Shown: positions 3,008-33,947, counted from the first letter of the stretch. The stretch is 64,000 bases of DNA from a bacterium (GCA_020854115.1 JADZGC010000004.1:65665-129664), one strand, 5' to 3'. Made by a program: numbers and translations. The notes: generated by a model not told the origin, from the sequence alone.

Positions 3008-5853
3008 AGATAGCTGTCGAAACAATCAATCGATACTTCAAGAAACCTCTATCTACAGATAGAATGGTGAGTTTAATTGAGCGCACAGAAATCGAAGTCG
3101 AAGAAATTTTGTATGCGAATAGGCTTGATCCAAAAATTATCTTAGCTAAAGTTCTGGATGTGTTTCCGCATCCTAATGCAGATCGACTACGACTAGTAGA
3201 TATAGAATATGGTGCGAAGCGACCAACGCGTGTAGTGTGCGGTGCTCCAAATGTAGCAGTCGGGCAGCGCGTAGCCTGGGTGCGACCCGGAGCTACGCTA
3301 CCGGACGGTACGCAGATTGACCAGGCAGTCATTCGCGGTGAGAAAAGCGCAGGAATGCTAGCTAGCGCCAAGGAATTAAGCATATCGGATGACCATTCTG
3401 GAATCGTCGTGCTTGATGAAGTAACCCACTCGCTTGGAACATCATTGTGCGACATTGTATTTTCGACTGACGTCCTGGATGTGAAGACGCCTGCGAACAG
3501 GTGGGATTACCTTAGCGGGGAGGGGATAGCACGTGAGCTGTCTGCATATGATCAGTCAATTCAGCTCCTTTTGCCAGAGCGAGGGGAATATACTTATCAA
3601 GACACCGATGTCGCGAAAGTCAAGGTTAGGGAAGAGAATAAGCGGTTTCTCAGTGCTCGCTTGCGATTAAAGAACGATGTCAAAACACCATCATGGCTTG
3701 TGGATAACTTGCTCGCGAACGGATTTGTGCCACATAATCCAGTCGTCGATATTACGAATTTTGTGATGCTAGAAACCGGACAGCCATCCCATGCCTATGA
3801 TGCGAATAAAGTCCGCGGTCCCCTTACTGTGCGTTTTGCAAAGAGCGGTGAAAAACTTACAACACTTGATGATGTGCATCGTACGCTCATGGATCAGGAT
3901 CTTGTGGTATGTGATGATTCAGGTCCGATCGGACTGGCTGGCGTGATTGGTGGCGCATCGACTCAAATTGACGCCACATCAACAGAAATAATTCTCGAAG
4001 CAGCGCATTGGGATAAGACTCTAGTACGCCGATCATCCATTCGACATGGTATTAGAACGGAAGCCTCGGCTCGCTTTGAGCGCAATCTCCCACTCCCCTT
4101 GCAGCCTTACGCATTTGCGCGCTTACTTGATTTGCTGATCGACATTTGTGGCGCAGAGATTATCGAAGGACCTTTTGACCAATTGCATGCCTGGCCGTGG
4201 CGACGTTTCTTGGGAGTTCGGTTGCGCCGTGCGGAACAATACTTGGGGATGCGGCTAAAGGAAGCGGAGATGGTCAGAGGTTTACGTAGACTTGGATTTG
4301 CTGCGCATCACTTTTCTCTCTCGGCCGAGCTGAAGTCACATCTTGGTAAGCCGTATAAATGGGGCGCAAATTTCCGTCAGGATGGTGAAGAAGCCTTTGA
4401 CTGCTCATACCTGGTAGATCGTTTGTATTCGAAGCTCGGTGTAGCCGTCGGACATACTGCCTTAGGTCAGCTACATCACGGTGAAGAAGTTGACTCAAAT
4501 GATGCATTAAGACCTGGTGACGTTGTGTTTTATGAGGGCAAAATTGAGAATTCTCACACCGACCACTATTACAAGACATTGCCAGATGGCTCGAAGCAGA
4601 AAGTAGTACTCAAGTCACCGGTACGTGTCGGACATAATGGTATATATCTCGGCAACAACCAGGTTATACATGCAGCCATATATAAATTTCGCAATGGGAA
4701 GTGGGTGAAGCGTCGACAGCAAGGGGTGATCATCTCTCCCCTGTCTGAGTTTGTTGATAATCCTGGCTACATCGGTGCGCGTCGCTATATTTCGAGCTTT
4801 AATCATATTATTGCGATCGAAGTCCCCTGGTGGCGAACAGACATTACATCAGAGACTGATATCTTCGAAGAAATGGCAAAGCTAGCGGGGTATGAAAAAT
4901 TGCCAGAAAGCCTACCGCAATTGCCACCTATGCCCGGCACAGCTCAGTCACAACAGGTTGAGAACATGCGGATTCGGCATGGCCTAGTACGCCAAGGTGC
5001 AATCGAGATAAATAGCTACAGCTTTATTTCCGAAGCGGATGTAAAATTGAGTCAAATACCAGAATCTCAAGTATTACGGATAGCGAATCCACGCTCTCCA
5101 GAGCAAGCGTTCGTACGTTCATCAATGCTAGCGAGTCATGCACGATTTTGGGCAAAGCAGTCGGCGCGTGCATCGTCGCTTGGCGCATTCGAGATCTCAC
5201 GTGTGTATGAGGCACAAGGGCTTGTCAAGCAGCCGAAAGAATCTTGGCGCCTGGCGATTAGTGCGCCTGGCGAGCAAGCTCTTCAAAACGTTCAAGGATT
5301 GCTCCATTCCGTGCTGTCAGATATGCGGGCTCAGGTGACGTTTCGGGCTGGTAGGCACGACGCAGACTCGATCAGAGGATTATCTGTGTATGTGCCGCAG
5401 CGCAGCGCCGGTTTGTTCGTCGGCTCGGAGTGGGCTGGTGTGATTGGCCAGCTACGCACTTCAGTACGACGAGGCTTCTCGTTGTCTGCTGATCTAGCGT
5501 ATGCAGAGGTGCTTATTGAGCTACTGGGATCAAGTCCTCGTCCGTATCCGATTAGGGCACTACCGCCCTATCAGCTCGTCACACGTGATATCTCGCTTGA
5601 GGTACCGGTGGGTGTTTGGTGGCAGGAGATTCGAGGCGCACTGCAGTCGGATAAGCATGTGTGGCAGGTGGAGTATCGAGAAAATTATTCGGATAGCATG
5701 CTACAAAAATCAGATAGACGAGTAGTGACCGTGCGACTGTGGCTAGATCTTGGTGCTCAACCAAGCCTTGATCAAATTGACAAGTCGGTGCAACGGGCGG
5801 TCAAGGGTCTTCAGATCCAGCTGAAACAAGCTGGTAAAATCAGCGTTCGATAG
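3004..5853 (+). CDS. pheT: Phenylalanyl-tRNA synthetase beta subunit, 949 aa, carrying an inserted NlpC/P60 domain
   Basis: N-terminal tRNA-binding (Myf) domain (VVCGAPNVAVGQRV...GEKSAGMLAS), B3/B4, B5 (LGVRLRRAEQYLGMRL..), C-terminal FDX-ACB region; about 150 aa longer than typical PheT. Confidence 0.95.
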   Translation: MKIAVETINRYFKKPLSTDRMVSLIERTEIEVEEILYANRLDPKIILAKVLDVFPHPNADRLRLVDIEYGAKRPTRVVCGAPNVAVGQRVAWVRPGATLPDGTQIDQAVIRGEKSAGMLASAKELSISDDHSGIVVLDEVTHSLGTSLCDIVFSTDVLDVKTPANRWDYLSGEGIARELSAYDQSIQLLLPERGEYTYQDTDVAKVKVREENKRFLSARLRLKNDVKTPSWLVDNLLANGFVPHNPVVDITNFVMLETGQPSHAYDANKVRGPLTVRFAKSGEKLTTLDDVHRTLMDQDLVVCDDSGPIGLAGVIGGASTQIDATSTEIILEAAHWDKTLVRRSSIRHGIRTEASARFERNLPLPLQPYAFARLLDLLIDICGAEIIEGPFDQLHAWPWRRFLGVRLRRAEQYLGMRLKEAEMVRGLRRLGFAAHHFSLSAELKSHLGKPYKWGANFRQDGEEAFDCSYLVDRLYSKLGVAVGHTALGQLHHGEEVDSNDALRPGDVVFYEGKIENSHTDHYYKTLPDGSKQKVVLKSPVRVGHNGIYLGNNQVIHAAIYKFRNGKWVKRRQQGVIISPLSEFVDNPGYIGARRYISSFNHIIAIEVPWWRTDITSETDIFEEMAKLAGYEKLPESLPQLPPMPGTAQSQQVENMRIRHGLVRQGAIEINSYSFISEADVKLSQIPESQVLRIANPRSPEQAFVRSSMLASHARFWAKQSARASSLGAFEISRVYEAQGLVKQPKESWRLAISAPGEQALQNVQGLLHSVLSDMRAQVTFRAGRHDADSIRGLSVYVPQRSAGLFVGSEWAGVIGQLRTSVRRGFSLSADLAYAEVLIELLGSSPRPYPIRALPPYQLVTRDISLEVPVGVWWQEIRGALQSDKHVWQVEYRENYSDSMLQKSDRRVVTVRLWLDLGAQPSLDQIDKSVQRAVKGLQIQLKQAGKISVR
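4340..4800 (+). other. NlpC/P60 papain-like cysteine hydrolase domain embedded in PheT (B5 region)
   Basis: GKPYKWGAN...FDCSYLV (Cys), RPGDVVFY, GHNGIYLGNNQVIHAA (His, His), QGVIISPLSEF...YIGARRY aligns motif-for-motif with Spr/MepS-type NlpC/P60. Confidence 0.8.
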
Positions 5854-20802: not shown

Positions 20803-20929
20803 AACTTAAAAAAGTTTTAAAGTTGTTTTGTATTCGTCTAGATGACAGGATTACATGCATTTCGAGTCTTCACTGTTGGCTCGAAAGCATTCCAAGATAA
20901 CAGTGAAATGATTCTTTGAATCATTTGTG

Positions 20930-22456
<1,527 letters not shown>

Positions 22457-22976: not shown

Positions 22977-23163
22977 ATGTGCTATTGTACGGGTATTTGA
23001 GGTGTTAGTAAAAAATGGTGCCTCTTTACGCTGAGGCTCGAACCTATTTTATCTCAAAAATGTAAGTTTGTGCTAAATTGCTGCTCCGTGCGCAAATGGA
23101 AGTCCGTAGAGCCAAATGCTACCAGCCCCGCCGCCTGCGCCAGCAGAGCTGTCGCGCGCCCAG

Positions 23164-23250
23164 CCCAGCCAGACTAACTTTTTGCATTTTTTTAGATTTC
23201 CCCCGCCAAAAAATTCTTTTTAATTTAGGAAAAAGTTAGTCTGGCTGGGC
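23164..23250. repeat. Long imperfect palindrome/hairpin (20-bp arms, 46-nt spacer) formed by two copies of the ccagccagactaacttttt repeat
   Basis: cccagccagactaacttttt (23164-23183) vs aaaaagttagtctggctggg (23231-23250). Confidence 0.6.
23224..23249. repeat. Left copy of 26-bp perfect inverted repeat atttaggaaaaagttagtctggctgg
   Basis: Exact reverse complement of 25411-25436. Confidence 0.7.
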
Positions 23251-23452
23251 CGTTCGCCTGCCATAAATGGCAAGAGACGGCGGGGTTTCGTCCCTGCTGA
23301 CTTCTAATTTTACTTAAACCGAAAGTCCGTGTCGCGAACAAAAAATAAGGCCAGCGGCTACGCCGCTGACATATGCAGTTGTAGGCAATGGCTACATGCA
23401 TAAACTAGGAAAATAGCGCCGACTATAGCACTATATCTCAAAGCGAAAAACA

Positions 23453-24526
23453 CGTATAGAACTCAGGACCTTTGCAACATTTCAGCAGGCGTCAGTAACT
23501 GCAAGCCTAAGTGTACGCGCTTAGTGTTGTAGTAGTCGAGATACGTCGTAAGCTTATCTCGCTGGCACTTAAGCGACACACTCCTGTTCCAGTAGTAGCC
23601 AATACATTCGGTTTGGATGGTGCGGTTAAATCGCTTAATGTGAGCGTTGTCATTCGGTCGGTGCAGCCGACTGTGTCTAGTAGCAATGCCATGAGACCGC
23701 ATTACTTGCTCAAAATAGCGTCCGTACTCCGGCCCATTGTCAGCTTGTATCATAGTCACTCTAAAGCCCCAACTGTCTTGAGCTTCCAGTACAGCTTGAG
23801 CCGCTCGTCCCGGACTCAGCTTTGCCGCCAGGGTAACGTAAGCCATTCGGCTGAATAAGTCTATGACTGTGTAGTAGTACAGTCTCCTACCGCTACGGGG
23901 GTCAACATGGTGGATGGTATCCGTCTCAACTAATTCACCTGGTCTCACGGCATATGGACGATGAGGGTTATCTCGTTTGAGTCGTGGCTTCCTGGCACCA
24001 TCAAAGCAGTGATGACGCCGCAGAATACGACGCACACTGCTGAGGCTAAGTCTTACTCCAAGAGTGTTTGTTACGTAATACCAGACAATCTCAGCACAAC
24101 GCATTAACTTAGCCCGGGCAGCTAGAACGAGCCTGACTGTCGCCCCGGGAATAGCATTAGGACAAGTATGCGGCCTAGAGCTTAGTGTAGCGATTCGCCA
24201 GCTACAAGCAGTTAGCTTGTGAGCTAGGCTAACCGATCGGCTAGGCCGGTTAGGGTTGTCAAATTGGACATATCGGTTAAGCTTGTCCCATTTGCGTTTC
24301 CAGCGCCAGATGGTTGAGCGATGAACACCACACTTTCTTGCGACAACAGCCAGAGGTTGTTGGTCTTCGACCAGTAACCGCATAGCGGTTGCTCTGGCAC
24401 TAGGTAAGTTAGGGTTGATAGAATAAGCCATGGTAGGCTCCTTTCTTATTAGTTGTTGATACTAACAGTTTAGGACGCCTACCTTTTTTAGTTCAATTTA
24501 GGTTGCAAAGGTCTTGAGTTACTACG
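23453..24526 (-). mobile_element. IS481-family insertion sequence (1074 bp) with imperfect ~26-bp terminal IRs and perfect 6-bp target-site duplication AAAACA
   Basis: IRL cgtatagaactcaggacctttgcaac (23453-23478) vs IRR-rc cgtagtaactcaagacctttgcaac (24502-24526); flanking aaaaca at 23447-23452 and 24527-24532. Confidence 0.85.
23463..24431 (-). CDS. IS481-family DDE transposase (integrase core domain)
   Basis: 322 aa; ETDTIH, IQADNGPEY, RPNDNAHIKRFNRTIQ, N-terminal HTH (VARKCGVHRSTIWRWKRKW). Confidence 0.9.
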   Translation of the reverse strand: MAYSINPNLPSARATAMRLLVEDQQPLAVVARKCGVHRSTIWRWKRKWDKLNRYVQFDNPNRPSRSVSLAHKLTACSWRIATLSSRPHTCPNAIPGATVRLVLAARAKLMRCAEIVWYYVTNTLGVRLSLSSVRRILRRHHCFDGARKPRLKRDNPHRPYAVRPGELVETDTIHHVDPRSGRRLYYYTVIDLFSRMAYVTLAAKLSPGRAAQAVLEAQDSWGFRVTMIQADNGPEYGRYFEQVMRSHGIATRHSRLHRPNDNAHIKRFNRTIQTECIGYYWNRSVSLKCQRDKLTTYLDYYNTKRVHLGLQLLTPAEMLQRS

Positions 24527-24532
24527 AAAACA

Positions 24533-24562
24533 TTGACAAATACTATATGTTTATTATAAAAT
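24533..24562 (+). promoter_or_regulatory. Putative promoter TTGACA-N18-TAAAAT for the high-GC ORF, immediately adjacent to the IS481 duplication
   Basis: ttgaca 24533-24538 directly follows TSD 24527-24532; taaaat 24557-24562; SD aaggag 24601-24606. Confidence 0.45.
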
Positions 24563-24615
24563 ATACCGAGTGTTTCTCAATCCCGAGAGACTCGTACCTA
24601 AGGAGTGTGAGGCAG

Positions 24616-25236
24616 ATGCCCACAGGCTACACGTCCGACCTCTACGAGGGCAAGGATGTCGAGTTCTCTGATTTCGTCATGAAGTGCGCGAGGGCGTTCG
24701 GTGCTCTCGTTGAGCTCCGTGACGAGCCGCTCGACTCGCCTGTCCCGACGGAGTTCAAGCCGAGCAGCTACCACACGGAGCAGCTCGAGAAGGCCGAGGC
24801 GGACGTCGCTCGCATCAAAGCGTGGGACGACACCGAAGCTGACCGCCAGGCACAGCTCGCTTTCGAGCGCGCAACACATGAGTACCAAGAGTCGCAAGCT
24901 CGCGAGCTCGCGATGCGTGAGCGCTACGAGACAATGCTCGCCAAGGTTCAGGCTTGGACGCCGCCCACCCAGGAGCATCGCGAACTCAAGAACTTCATGG
25001 TCAAGCAACTAGAGAAGTCCATCGACTTCGACTGCAACACGACCTACCCGGAAGTTCCGGAGCGCCTCAGCGGTGCCGCCTACAAGGAGCAGCAACTCCA
25101 TTCGGCCCGTTGGCAGGTCTCGTACCACACCGAGCACGGTGAGGAAGAGATCAAGCGAGCCAAGGAGCGTACCGATTGGGTTCGGGCCTTGCGCCAGAGC
25201 CTCACGGAGTCCTCTGACACAACTGTCGAGGCCTGA
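24616..25236 (+). CDS. Hypothetical protein encoded by compositionally foreign high-GC DNA (GC3-rich), 206 aa
   Basis: ATG 24616 behind AAGGAG; codons overwhelmingly G/C-ending (gac ctc tac gag ggc aag ...); several overlapping alternative-frame ORFs on both strands typical of high-GC DNA; the 24514 upstream extension in the ORF track is AT-rich and non-coding. Confidence 0.65.
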   Translation: MPTGYTSDLYEGKDVEFSDFVMKCARAFGALVELRDEPLDSPVPTEFKPSSYHTEQLEKAEADVARIKAWDDTEADRQAQLAFERATHEYQESQARELAMRERYETMLAKVQAWTPPTQEHRELKNFMVKQLEKSIDFDCNTTYPEVPERLSGAAYKEQQLHSARWQVSYHTEHGEEEIKRAKERTDWVRALRQSLTESSDTTVEA

Positions 25237-25410
25237 GAGCACGAAACCCTGCACATGCAGGTCGGTAGGCAGAAAGTCTAGTAAGAGATCGTGGCAAAAC
25301 CACAATCACTGAACAACTTTCTACCTACCGTATAACCCGTCCATGAAGCGTAAAACAGCCATGCTGATGAGCCGTAAAGCGGCGAAACGGTTAGAAAAGT
25401 AGAATTAAAA

Positions 25411-25436
25411 CCAGCCAGACTAACTTTTTCCTAAAT
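25411..25436. repeat. Right copy of 26-bp perfect inverted repeat ccagccagactaactttttcctaaat
   Basis: Exact reverse complement of 23224-23249; lies 15 bp beyond the 3' end of tRNA-Ile. Confidence 0.7.
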
Positions 25437-25451
25437 CAAAAAGTTTCTTTA

Positions 25452-25528
25452 TGGTGGGCTTGGCAGGACTCGAACCTGCGACCTCGTCATTATCAGTGAC
25501 GCGCTCTAACCAGCTGAGCTACAAGCCC
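25452..25528 (-). tRNA. tRNA-Ile (anticodon GAU), CCA encoded
   Basis: Minus-strand cloverleaf gggcttgtagctcagctggttagagcgcgtcaCTGATAAtgacgaggtcgcaggttcgagtcctgccaagcccacca. Confidence 0.9.
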
Positions 25529-30584: not shown

Positions 30585-30596
30585 AAACGAGAAAAA

Positions 30597-33780
<3,184 letters not shown>

Positions 33781-33947
33781 TTCTTTGCGTGACATTGTGT
33801 GATGAATTCGTTCTTCATACAAGTCACAGCATGAGACGGCTAACACGCTCTTGAAGAGTGTTGTCGAAATAAGTCACGTTTGTATCTTATTCTCTATGTG
33901 TGCCAATGAGCATCGATCTGGTAGCTTTGATTTACATTGAGGAGACA

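Follow-up and report, generated by a model that had tools for sequence, protein, structure and literature searches.

Copies of a hairpin arm around a hammerhead-tailed, phage-family gene cassette at a bacterial tRNA-Ile gene

A perfect inverted repeat of 26 nucleotides (nt) encloses about 2.2 kilobases (kb) within a 64-kb stretch of bacterial DNA (GCA_020854115.1, JADZGC010000004.1:65665-129664), referred to here as the window, in which all positions are counted from the first letter. The question raised by this locus is whether such repeats are the ends of a mobile element, the crossover sites of an invertible segment, the remnants of a broken rRNA operon, or pieces of some other structure. 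A sequence-only reading of the region had proposed that they could be the terminal inverted repeats (TIRs) of a small non-autonomous cassette, similar to a miniature inverted-repeat transposable element (MITE) and carrying one passenger gene. The analysis presented here favors, with a confidence slightly above even, a different answer, in which the repeats derive by copying from one arm of H, a conserved hairpin element, and bracket a phage-derived, ribozyme-tailed cassette inside an islet adjacent to tRNA-Ile, the bracket being probably a relic of mobilisation or insertion.

The inverted repeat and the hairpin element H

The repeat itself, CCAGCCAGACTAACTTTTTCCTAAAT, occurs exactly twice in the window, on the minus strand at 23223-23248 and on the plus strand at 25411-25436, and shuffled sequences gave an expectation of 0.00 matches to the 26-mer with 3 mismatches allowed. 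The left copy had earlier been read correctly but placed 1 nt too high, at 23224-23249. As had also been noticed, the similarity continues beyond the 26-mer, reaching 40 nt at 90% (36/40), which delimits a left arm at 23209-23248 and a right arm at 25411-25450 (plus strand), and a weaker inverted identity can be followed to 49 nt (40/49, 82%), where it enters the 3' end of tRNA-Ile by 9 nt (TGGTGGGC against TGGCGGGGG). The unit 23209-25450 carries inverted repeats at both of its ends, whether these are counted as 26/26, 36/40, or 40/49 nt, and it measures 1162 base pairs (bp) once an insertion sequence of the IS481 family is subtracted. The placement of the right repeat beside the tRNA-Ile(GAU) gene (25452-25528, minus strand) was equally accurate, given that this arm ends 1 nt before the gene, the 3' end of which is also the right boundary of the islet.

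A third copy of the repeat core lies at 23165-23183 (plus strand), where 19 of 19 nt repeat the right copy in direct orientation. The hairpin that this copy was said to form with the left copy does exist, with arms of 28 nt that are 89% complementary around a loop of 46 nt, and it belongs to a larger structure of some 120-200 nt. This structure is H, which extends on the minus strand over 23100-23310, with its core at 23140-23256, and is composed of a long stem, the conserved 46-nt loop, and two side hairpins, the extended fold of 23090-23320 having a z of -7.0. Its stem is made up of the third copy on one side and the left arm on the other, the left arm including a further 21 nt of the H loop. 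On the right, H is present as a partial copy in inverted orientation, again an arm plus 21 nt of loop, which matches it at 97% over 33 nt.

Homologues of H adjoin the homologous gene cassette, which is built around an open reading frame (ORF) for 206 amino acids, ORF206, in two other species (loci L014/L015 and L046). The loop motif TCGGCGGGGGAAATCT.AAAAAA.ATGC is conserved among the window, L014/L015, and L046, while the stems differ. RNAalifold predicted 30 pairs in H, 12 of them with compensatory changes, and a covariance model of the element (R1) found matches in 227 kb solely at these cassette-associated loci. H is absent from the relatives in which the islet site is empty, its loop motif is absent from IMG/VR, and an Rfam search of H returned only spurious sub-threshold microRNA matches. 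In the preferred reading, all three repeat copies represent one H arm, in an element that accompanies a phage-derived single-gene cassette in Saccharimonadaceae-like bacteria, with a complete H upstream of the cassette and an inverted partial H just downstream of it, flush with the 3' end of tRNA-Ile.

This anatomy bears on the alternative that the repeats are true TIRs of a non-autonomous MITE-like transposon, of which the unit 23209-25450 could still be moved by a transposase encoded elsewhere. The perfect 26-nt core speaks for it, as do the absence of the region in relatives, the size of the unit, near the 1153 bp of a mobile unit in a sister lineage, and the position of the right arm, which starts shortly past the hammerhead in both lineages. 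We nevertheless consider it unlikely, as the conserved hairpin that contains the left arm reaches beyond the supposed element with its other arm and its flanks, and the DNA missing from the relatives begins 190 nt further to the left. No target-site duplication directly flanks either the 26- or the 40-nt arms, the left flank ending in tttcccccgcca and the right one opening with atggtgggct, and the search for direct duplications at the repeat copies, which would have backed the earlier proposal, thus failed at both arms. The search for additional copies was negative as well, since neither the 26-mer nor a 14-mer gave further copies in the 64-kb window, and the 19-mer core gave no match in IMG/VR and two matches in Joint Genome Institute (JGI) metagenomes, which were judged to be chance matches because they are located within unrelated sequence. 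The repeat sequence of the window is shared with no other copy of the cassette, and no autonomous partner transposon with matching repeats was found, the ends of the IS481 element (CGTATAGAACTCAGG...) being unrelated to the arms. The part of the earlier claim that is upheld is the foreign and mobile character of the bracketed DNA, and the part that finds no support is the 26-mer as a classical MITE end or TIR. A dispersed genomic repeat was also considered, and was rejected as far as the data allow, given that no further copy turned up with the 26-mer and 14-mer in the window or with the 19-mer in IMG/VR.

A role at the level of RNA was weighed too. On the minus strand, the trailer transcribed behind tRNA-Ala and tRNA-Ile might pair over 40 nt with an RNA made from H, or might compete with the H stem, with consequences for processing or regulation. 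The right copy does directly follow tRNA-Ile on the minus strand, the stems of H covary, and the minus strand of H has a promoter-like site at 23335-23307 and a terminator-like hairpin with a T-run at 23037-23020, between which H could be expressed as a small RNA (sRNA) of about 290 nt. On the other hand, H occurs in L014 with neither a partial copy nor a neighbouring tRNA, and a distance of 2.2 kb, within which there is a minus-strand terminator, separates the two arms of the window. Such a role seems very improbable.

The ORF206 cassette and its hammerhead motif

The content of the bracket was described earlier as a promoter, a high-GC gene, and a 3' stem-loop, and these components were all recovered. 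The promoter is sigma-70-like (24533-24562, plus strand) and reads TTGACA-18-TAAAAT, with 11 of 12 consensus positions, and it is followed by a conserved 5' untranslated region (5'UTR; 24569-24615, plus strand), AGTGTTTCTCAA..GAGAG..AAGGAGTGTGAGGC, that contains the ribosome-binding site and marks the point at which DNA homology to other cassettes begins. The same promoter layout precedes the conserved 5'UTR in L014, L026, L022, and L054. ORF206 itself (24616-25236, plus strand) has a guanine-cytosine (GC) content of 61% against 49% in the window, and belongs to the phage protein family phrog_8905 (E 3e-40 against PHROG). Its homologues were found in 47 GenBank phage genomes and at 246 IMG/VR loci, and a further count gave 1395 homologues. 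The AlphaFold 2 model of the protein is all-helical, with a mean confidence (pLDDT) of 91, and the predicted fold matches only uncharacterised phage proteins in BFVD. No match was obtained in Pfam, NCBIfam, PADLOC, or in PDB searches by sequence and by fold, and the region shows no DNA similarity to GenBank phages.

Downstream of the gene, the 3' untranslated region (3'UTR) forms a small hairpin (25248-25261) and a long one (25263-25330), both on the plus strand and without a T-run (z -5.2). The stem-loop had been taken as the end of the unit, which is not the case, since a type III hammerhead that the sequence-only reading had missed follows at 25334-25393 (plus strand), where Rfam RF00008 scores 34.9 bits with an E of 1e-4 in 8.3 kb. 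All of the conserved core is intact, including the NUH triplet with its cleavage site (GUC/C), CUGAUGAG (CUGAUGA), and CGAAAC (GAAA), and cleavage is predicted after C25341. The arrangement of two hairpins and a hammerhead recurs, in a different sequence, in L014 (z -6.4), L022 (z -8.6), and L054 (z -7.0).

A custom-made structural scanner was applied to the window and to the homologue loci, and it found one hammerhead behind each close ORF206 homologue and none elsewhere in the window or in the loci scanned. Four variants can be distinguished (window, L014/L026, L022, and L054), in which all three helices show compensatory changes. Helix I is formed by CAUG/CAUG, CAUAG/CUAUG, CACGAA/UUCGUG, or CAUAAG/CUUAUG, helix II by GCCG/CGGC, GCCA/UGGC, GUCC/GGAC, or GCUG/CAGU, and helix III is varied likewise. 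The motif has, in this way, three helices, the type III topology, and covariation, from which we infer ribozyme activity. The same scanner found no type III hammerhead at 80 IMG/VR ORF206 loci or at distant genome loci, and an Rfam scan of the 20 closest IMG/VR loci produced no match to any RNA family.

From its sequence, the cassette would be an autonomous transcription unit, made up of the promoter, the 5'UTR, ORF206, the two hairpins, and the hammerhead. No terminator-like site exists on the plus strand between the hammerhead and the tRNA genes. The ribozyme would cut the RNA 11 nt past the long hairpin, leaving an mRNA with a hairpin-capped 3' end, and would sever this mRNA from read-through RNA that is antisense to tRNA-Ile and tRNA-Ala. 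Such a role at the 3' end is consistent with published bacterial hammerheads, which are known from positions beside single genes where prophages or integrases occur (Perreault et al. 2011, PMC3088659). The locus could, in this sense, offer a concrete case for what a bacterial hammerhead does, namely, to give an mRNA a hairpin-capped 3' end and to insulate tRNA genes from antisense read-through. The literature search returned no paper that links hammerheads with Saccharibacteria.

The combination of a size near 1.1 kb, an ORF of about 200 amino acids, and a type III hammerhead also led to the consideration of a small circle similar to an Obelisk or a viroid, which was rejected because ORF206 is part of a gene family of double-stranded DNA phages and because the unit is chromosomal and has a DNA promoter.

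The islet at tRNA-Ile and the homologous cassettes

The cassette and its bracket are found in a region with a simple gene order, that is, 16S rRNA (20927-22454, plus strand), a gene for a membrane protein of 85 amino acids (minus), the islet, tRNA-Ile (minus), and tRNA-Ala (minus), after which come PrsW, four more genes, and then 23S and 5S rRNA (plus). Relatives were located through their PrsW homologues (76% and 67% identity), and the check for empty sites that had been recommended was successful, as the islet is absent from the syntenic interval between the 85-amino-acid gene and tRNA-Ile in L038/L039 and in L043. In L038/L039, the start region of the 85-amino-acid gene is followed by 48 nt and then by tRNA-Ile, and in L043 an unrelated spacer of 270 nt occupies the position of the islet. 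Homology between the window and L038/L039 ends at 23015, and, because of this and because L038/L039 and L043 have no islet DNA, the islet can be taken as lineage-specific. It spans 23016-25451, or 2436 bp, which are reduced to 1356 bp without IS481 and one copy of its duplication, and its site of insertion is a tRNA 3' end. Its boundary is approximate because the relatives are different species, and it does not match that of the repeat-bounded unit, given that the absent DNA begins at 23016 and the left arm only at 23209, about 190 nt inside. The islet contains no genes other than ORF206 and that of the IS481 transposase, and thus no integrase or recombinase.

These relatives also refute the suggestion that the repeats were left behind by a rearrangement in which the rRNA operon was broken. 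They lack the islet and share the layout of 16S (plus) followed by tRNA-Ile and tRNA-Ala (minus), to which L043 adds 23S and 5S (plus) downstream, and a split rRNA operon with inverted tRNA genes is consequently ancestral, because the layout is the same where the islet is missing.

At its left end, the islet begins with TGGTGCCTCTTTACGCTGAGGCTCGAACCTATTTTATC (R', 23016-23060, plus strand), which aligns with the outer end of a repeat, R, that bounds the cassette in L026, L014, and L046, and which would accordingly be a remnant of an R-type end that marks the left boundary of the foreign DNA. The 26-nt repeat is, in relation to these limits, internal to the islet at the left arm and terminal at the right arm. 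The window and its sister loci are assembled from common parts, namely R, H, and the core cassette, which are arranged differently. In the mechanism proposed here, H, the R-type remnant, and the cassette would together constitute a foreign islet of about 1.36 kb, which would have grown to 2.44 kb upon the insertion of IS481.

The junctions with the tRNA gene allow another reading, according to which H and its partial copy are what remains of the attachment site (att), or of a junction, of a small circular integrative element after its recombination with tRNA-Ile at the 3' end, the H loop motif TGGCGGGGG mimicking the complement of a tRNA 3' end. Both this motif and the R end do resemble that complement (TGG.G...), the repeat similarity enters tRNA-Ile by the 9 nt mentioned above, and TGGTG...CTCGAACCT can be read in the direct orientation in R' as well as in tRNA-Ile. 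Other cassettes lie beside direct repeats of tRNA 3' ends (27 nt in L046 and 35 nt in L047), and a gene for a serine recombinase neighbours the unit in L026/L051. Conservative integration through the H loop, however, predicts a split H with its 3' half at the left junction, and what is seen there is a complete, inverted H. The tRNA-like matches are short and degenerate, R' being closer to the repeat R of other species than to tRNA-Ile, and neither the islet nor the window encodes an integrase, all of which makes the att reading improbable. The simple integration of H as a split hairpin was rejected on the same ground, since the left junction that it predicts is not seen.

Close homologues of ORF206 (58-78% amino acid identity) were found in at least 6 other contexts, namely, upstream of SpoU (L012-L021), between ftsE and prfA (L022), beside a serine recombinase (resolvase) gene (L026 and L051), in a separate context with a right flank unlike that of L051 (L052), next to tRNA-Leu, whose 3' end recurs there in a direct repeat of 27 nt (L046), and after tRNA 3' ends (L047, L054, and L050), the 35-nt direct repeat of L047 lying near the cassette. 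DNA homology of about 80% with the window is confined to the stretch from the 5'UTR to the hammerhead (24585/24599-25389) and leaves out the repeats. The host of the window is probably a Saccharimonadaceae-like bacterium of the candidate phyla radiation (CPR), as judged from ORF206, because its closest genome locus is in a Saccharimonadaceae-like metagenome-assembled genome (MAG). The organism is present in samples SRR29708233, SRR9852169, DRR774218, and ERZ27258528. In L046, the 27-nt direct repeat (1140-1166 / 1339-1365) includes the 3' end of tRNA-Leu(UAG) and has an att-like signature, and a 68-bp tandem repeat in 2.2 copies (1419-1571) overlaps the 5' side of the same tRNA.

The serine recombinase gene beside the sister unit, together with the fact that inverted repeats of 26-40 nt around a promoter and a gene resemble invertible segments of the hix/gix type, counts for the possibility that crossover takes place at the repeats through a site-specific invertase, which would flip the 2.2-kb segment and cause phase variation of ORF206. 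A tblastn search found no resolvase or invertase homologue in the 64-kb window, and all five contigs of the same species, from four other samples, that span an arm (L001, L002, L003, L004, and L008) are colinear with it across one or both arms, as far as each spans them. Furthermore, a flip would leave the linkage between promoter and gene unchanged because both are within the segment. We regard the earlier suggestion of an invertible segment as scarcely credible. Invertons of the Hin/Gin type share with the locus inverted repeats of similar length around some 1-2 kb, and they differ from it in that the window has no nearby recombinase and no isomers were seen, with promoter and gene bound to flip together.

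The most instructive comparison is with the lineage of L026, L051, L052, L014, and L046, in which the cassette is bracketed by R (TGGTGAGTTTTTACGCCC...), a repeat unrelated to that of the window, in inverted arms of 126-136 nt. The arms of 136 nt are 96% identical, and the right arm begins 4 nt past the hammerhead. The R-bounded unit has 1153 bp (L026 2751-3903), close to the 1162 bp of the window unit. The copies L051 1-1141 and L052 23-1163 are 100% identical over 1141 bp, with right flanks that diverge directly after ...CTCACCA, and the unit must have moved recently because the copies are identical yet the flanks differ. It is plausible, for the same reason, that bracketing repeats belong to a mobile cassette, given that identical R-bounded copies occur with different flanks.

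R is also a dispersed repeat, and inverted copies of it flank a housekeeping-type gene for an FAD-binding oxidase in L026 (926-1130 and 2555-2723), where they share an internal insertion of 72 nt; the outermost flanks of the same locus (880-925 / 3904-3950) are inverted copies as well, each with a terminator-like hairpin. Within R there is a GC-rich hairpin of 33 nt similar to repetitive extragenic palindromic (REP) sequences. The target duplication of the R-bounded unit is inconsistent, with a possible 4 bp (AATT) in L052 and 7-8 bp in L014, which may be part of a 41-nt direct repeat. The flanks of L052 form a palindrome, AGTTGCAATT on one side and AATTGCAACT on the other, and the flanks beyond the repeats are weakly inverted in the window, L052, and L026, which hints at palindromic targets or at longer, degenerate repeats. 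L014 contains, at 775-834 (L015 497-556), a perfect palindromic mini-element, GGCGAAATATCTGAAATCTC..., with arms of 28 nt that include the flanking AATT and a loop of 4 nt; it has inserted next to the left repeat of the R-bounded unit, with a duplication of AATT on its flanks.

Two origins of the bracket in the window may be envisaged, in that the repeat-bounded unit could have been mobilised in trans, like that of the sister lineage, or the cassette could have inserted into a palindrome. It is a tentative and doubtful idea that the ORF206-hammerhead unit represents an undescribed family of non-autonomous mobile cassettes of about 1.15 kb in Saccharimonadaceae, the right boundary of which would be set by the hammerhead, and the ends of which would be lineage-specific long inverted repeats, of the H type here and of the R type in the sister lineage. 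If the ends are indeed lineage-specific, mobilisation may depend on structure rather than on sequence, or the cassettes may insert into palindromes or tRNA 3' ends.

Several points weigh against the preferred reading, in which copies of an H arm form a relic bracket around the cassette. Bracketing repeats have arisen independently only twice among some six cassette lineages, with none in L022, L054, and L047, and they may be incidental because of this, in which case the locus would be no more than a decayed islet of the usual kind, situated at a tRNA hotspot. No mechanism accounts for the inverted partial copy of H, and the islet has no integrase and only a degenerate direct repeat of the tRNA 3' end (TGGTG...CTCGAACCT, interrupted by a 4-nt indel). 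The copy number of the 26-mer rests on 64 kb of the genome, with copies possible elsewhere. As to the hammerhead, its 34.9 bits are under the RF00008 gathering score of 48.5, and the hammerheads of the L014, L053, and L054 types were not reported by cmscan.

Kinship with known systems and further insertions

The locus joins three known kinds of structure, that is, the tRNA-adjacent islet or phage moron, the gene-carrying unit in inverted repeats, and the bacterial hammerhead. In common with MITEs, pack-MITEs, and composite-like elements, it has a short, transposase-free unit in inverted repeats, with a sister unit of 1153 bp that occurs as identical copies in different contexts. Unlike MITEs, the window has neither a target duplication nor a multicopy family, the repeats vary between cassette copies, and a conserved hairpin of greater size includes the left repeat as one of its arms.

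The published bacterial hammerheads (PMC3088659) resemble the one described here in being of type III, beside a phage-family gene in a foreign region, and in the presumed cutting of a longer transcript to an mRNA of gene length. The window differs in having a single hammerhead, at the 3' side, after conserved protective hairpins and with the bracketing repeat directly next to it, and also in its host, apparently a Saccharimonadaceae-like CPR bacterium.

Islets adjacent to tRNA genes and phage morons are likewise self-contained units of atypical GC content with a phage-family gene, placed at a tRNA 3' end and absent in relatives. In contrast to these, the locus lacks an integrase, it shows no clear direct duplication of the 3' end of the tRNA, it lies outside a prophage, and its 3' end would be made by a predicted ribozyme and not, as in morons, by an intrinsic terminator. 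H and R are similar to the palindromic repeats known as ERIC, Correia, and REP/BIME-like elements, being intergenic, strongly folding, imperfect palindromes of about 100-200 nt, whereas H is single-copy in 64 kb and was found only beside the ORF206 cassette. Cassettes with integron attC-like sites were considered as well and rejected, since the repeats bracket the whole gene, in place of a single 3' hairpin, and the copies alternate in orientation.

The interest of the locus resides less in the 26-mer than in the hammerhead-tailed, repeat-bracketed cassettes of a CPR lineage. Three topics that are usually separate meet here, the self-cleaving ribozyme, the orphan gene family of phages, and the long bracketing inverted repeat, and they do so in a poorly known lineage of ultra-small bacteria. 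The identical copies of the sister unit in different contexts provide a handle on the movement of single genes among streamlined CPR genomes.

The upstream region of the cassette has received further DNA. The IS481-family insertion sequence (23453-24526, minus strand) has a transposase gene at 23463-24431 that matches Pfam rve and HTH_23 and NCBIfam IS481 (NF033577, E 6e-48, below the family cutoff). It had been credited with its own inverted repeats and duplication, and these are real, the ends being imperfect repeats of about 26 nt with a 19-nt core that is 95% complementary (23460-23478 / 24502-24520), and the duplication being the 6 bp AAAACA at 23447-23452 / 24527-24532. The element has the marks of its family, namely, a DDE (rve) transposase with an N-terminal helix-turn-helix (HTH), imperfect terminal repeats, and a short target duplication, and it is a later insertion into the region upstream of the cassette. 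Between IS481 and H, there is a terminator-like hairpin with a T-run (23350-23370, minus strand).

In other samples of the same species (L002, L005, and L009), IS481 has an internal deletion of 577 bp (window 23847-24423), which removes most of the transposase gene. Sample ERZ27258528 (L003 1-411 and L005 1-1252) contains yet another element at the end of IS481, at window 24522-24529. Its ends read GGCAATTAT(A)CCC, it is accompanied by a duplication of 8 bp (CTACGAAA), and it carries the N-terminus of an IS1595-like zinc-ribbon transposase. The region upstream of the cassette is, in this respect, a hotspot of insertion.

A similar observation concerns the tRNA genes, given that in L038 an orphan ORF of 146 amino acids (3016-3456, minus strand), with its own promoter-like region and a 3' hairpin, lies between tRNA-Ile and tRNA-Ala; it has no match in Pfam or PADLOC. 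The pair of tRNA genes is a hotspot for the insertion of single genes. Finally, the match to 23S rRNA at 30591-33785 is 3195 nt long, compared with 2925 nt in the model and 3249 nt in L043, which implies that this rRNA carries insertions of about 270-320 nt, of the kind that are frequent in the rRNAs of CPR bacteria.

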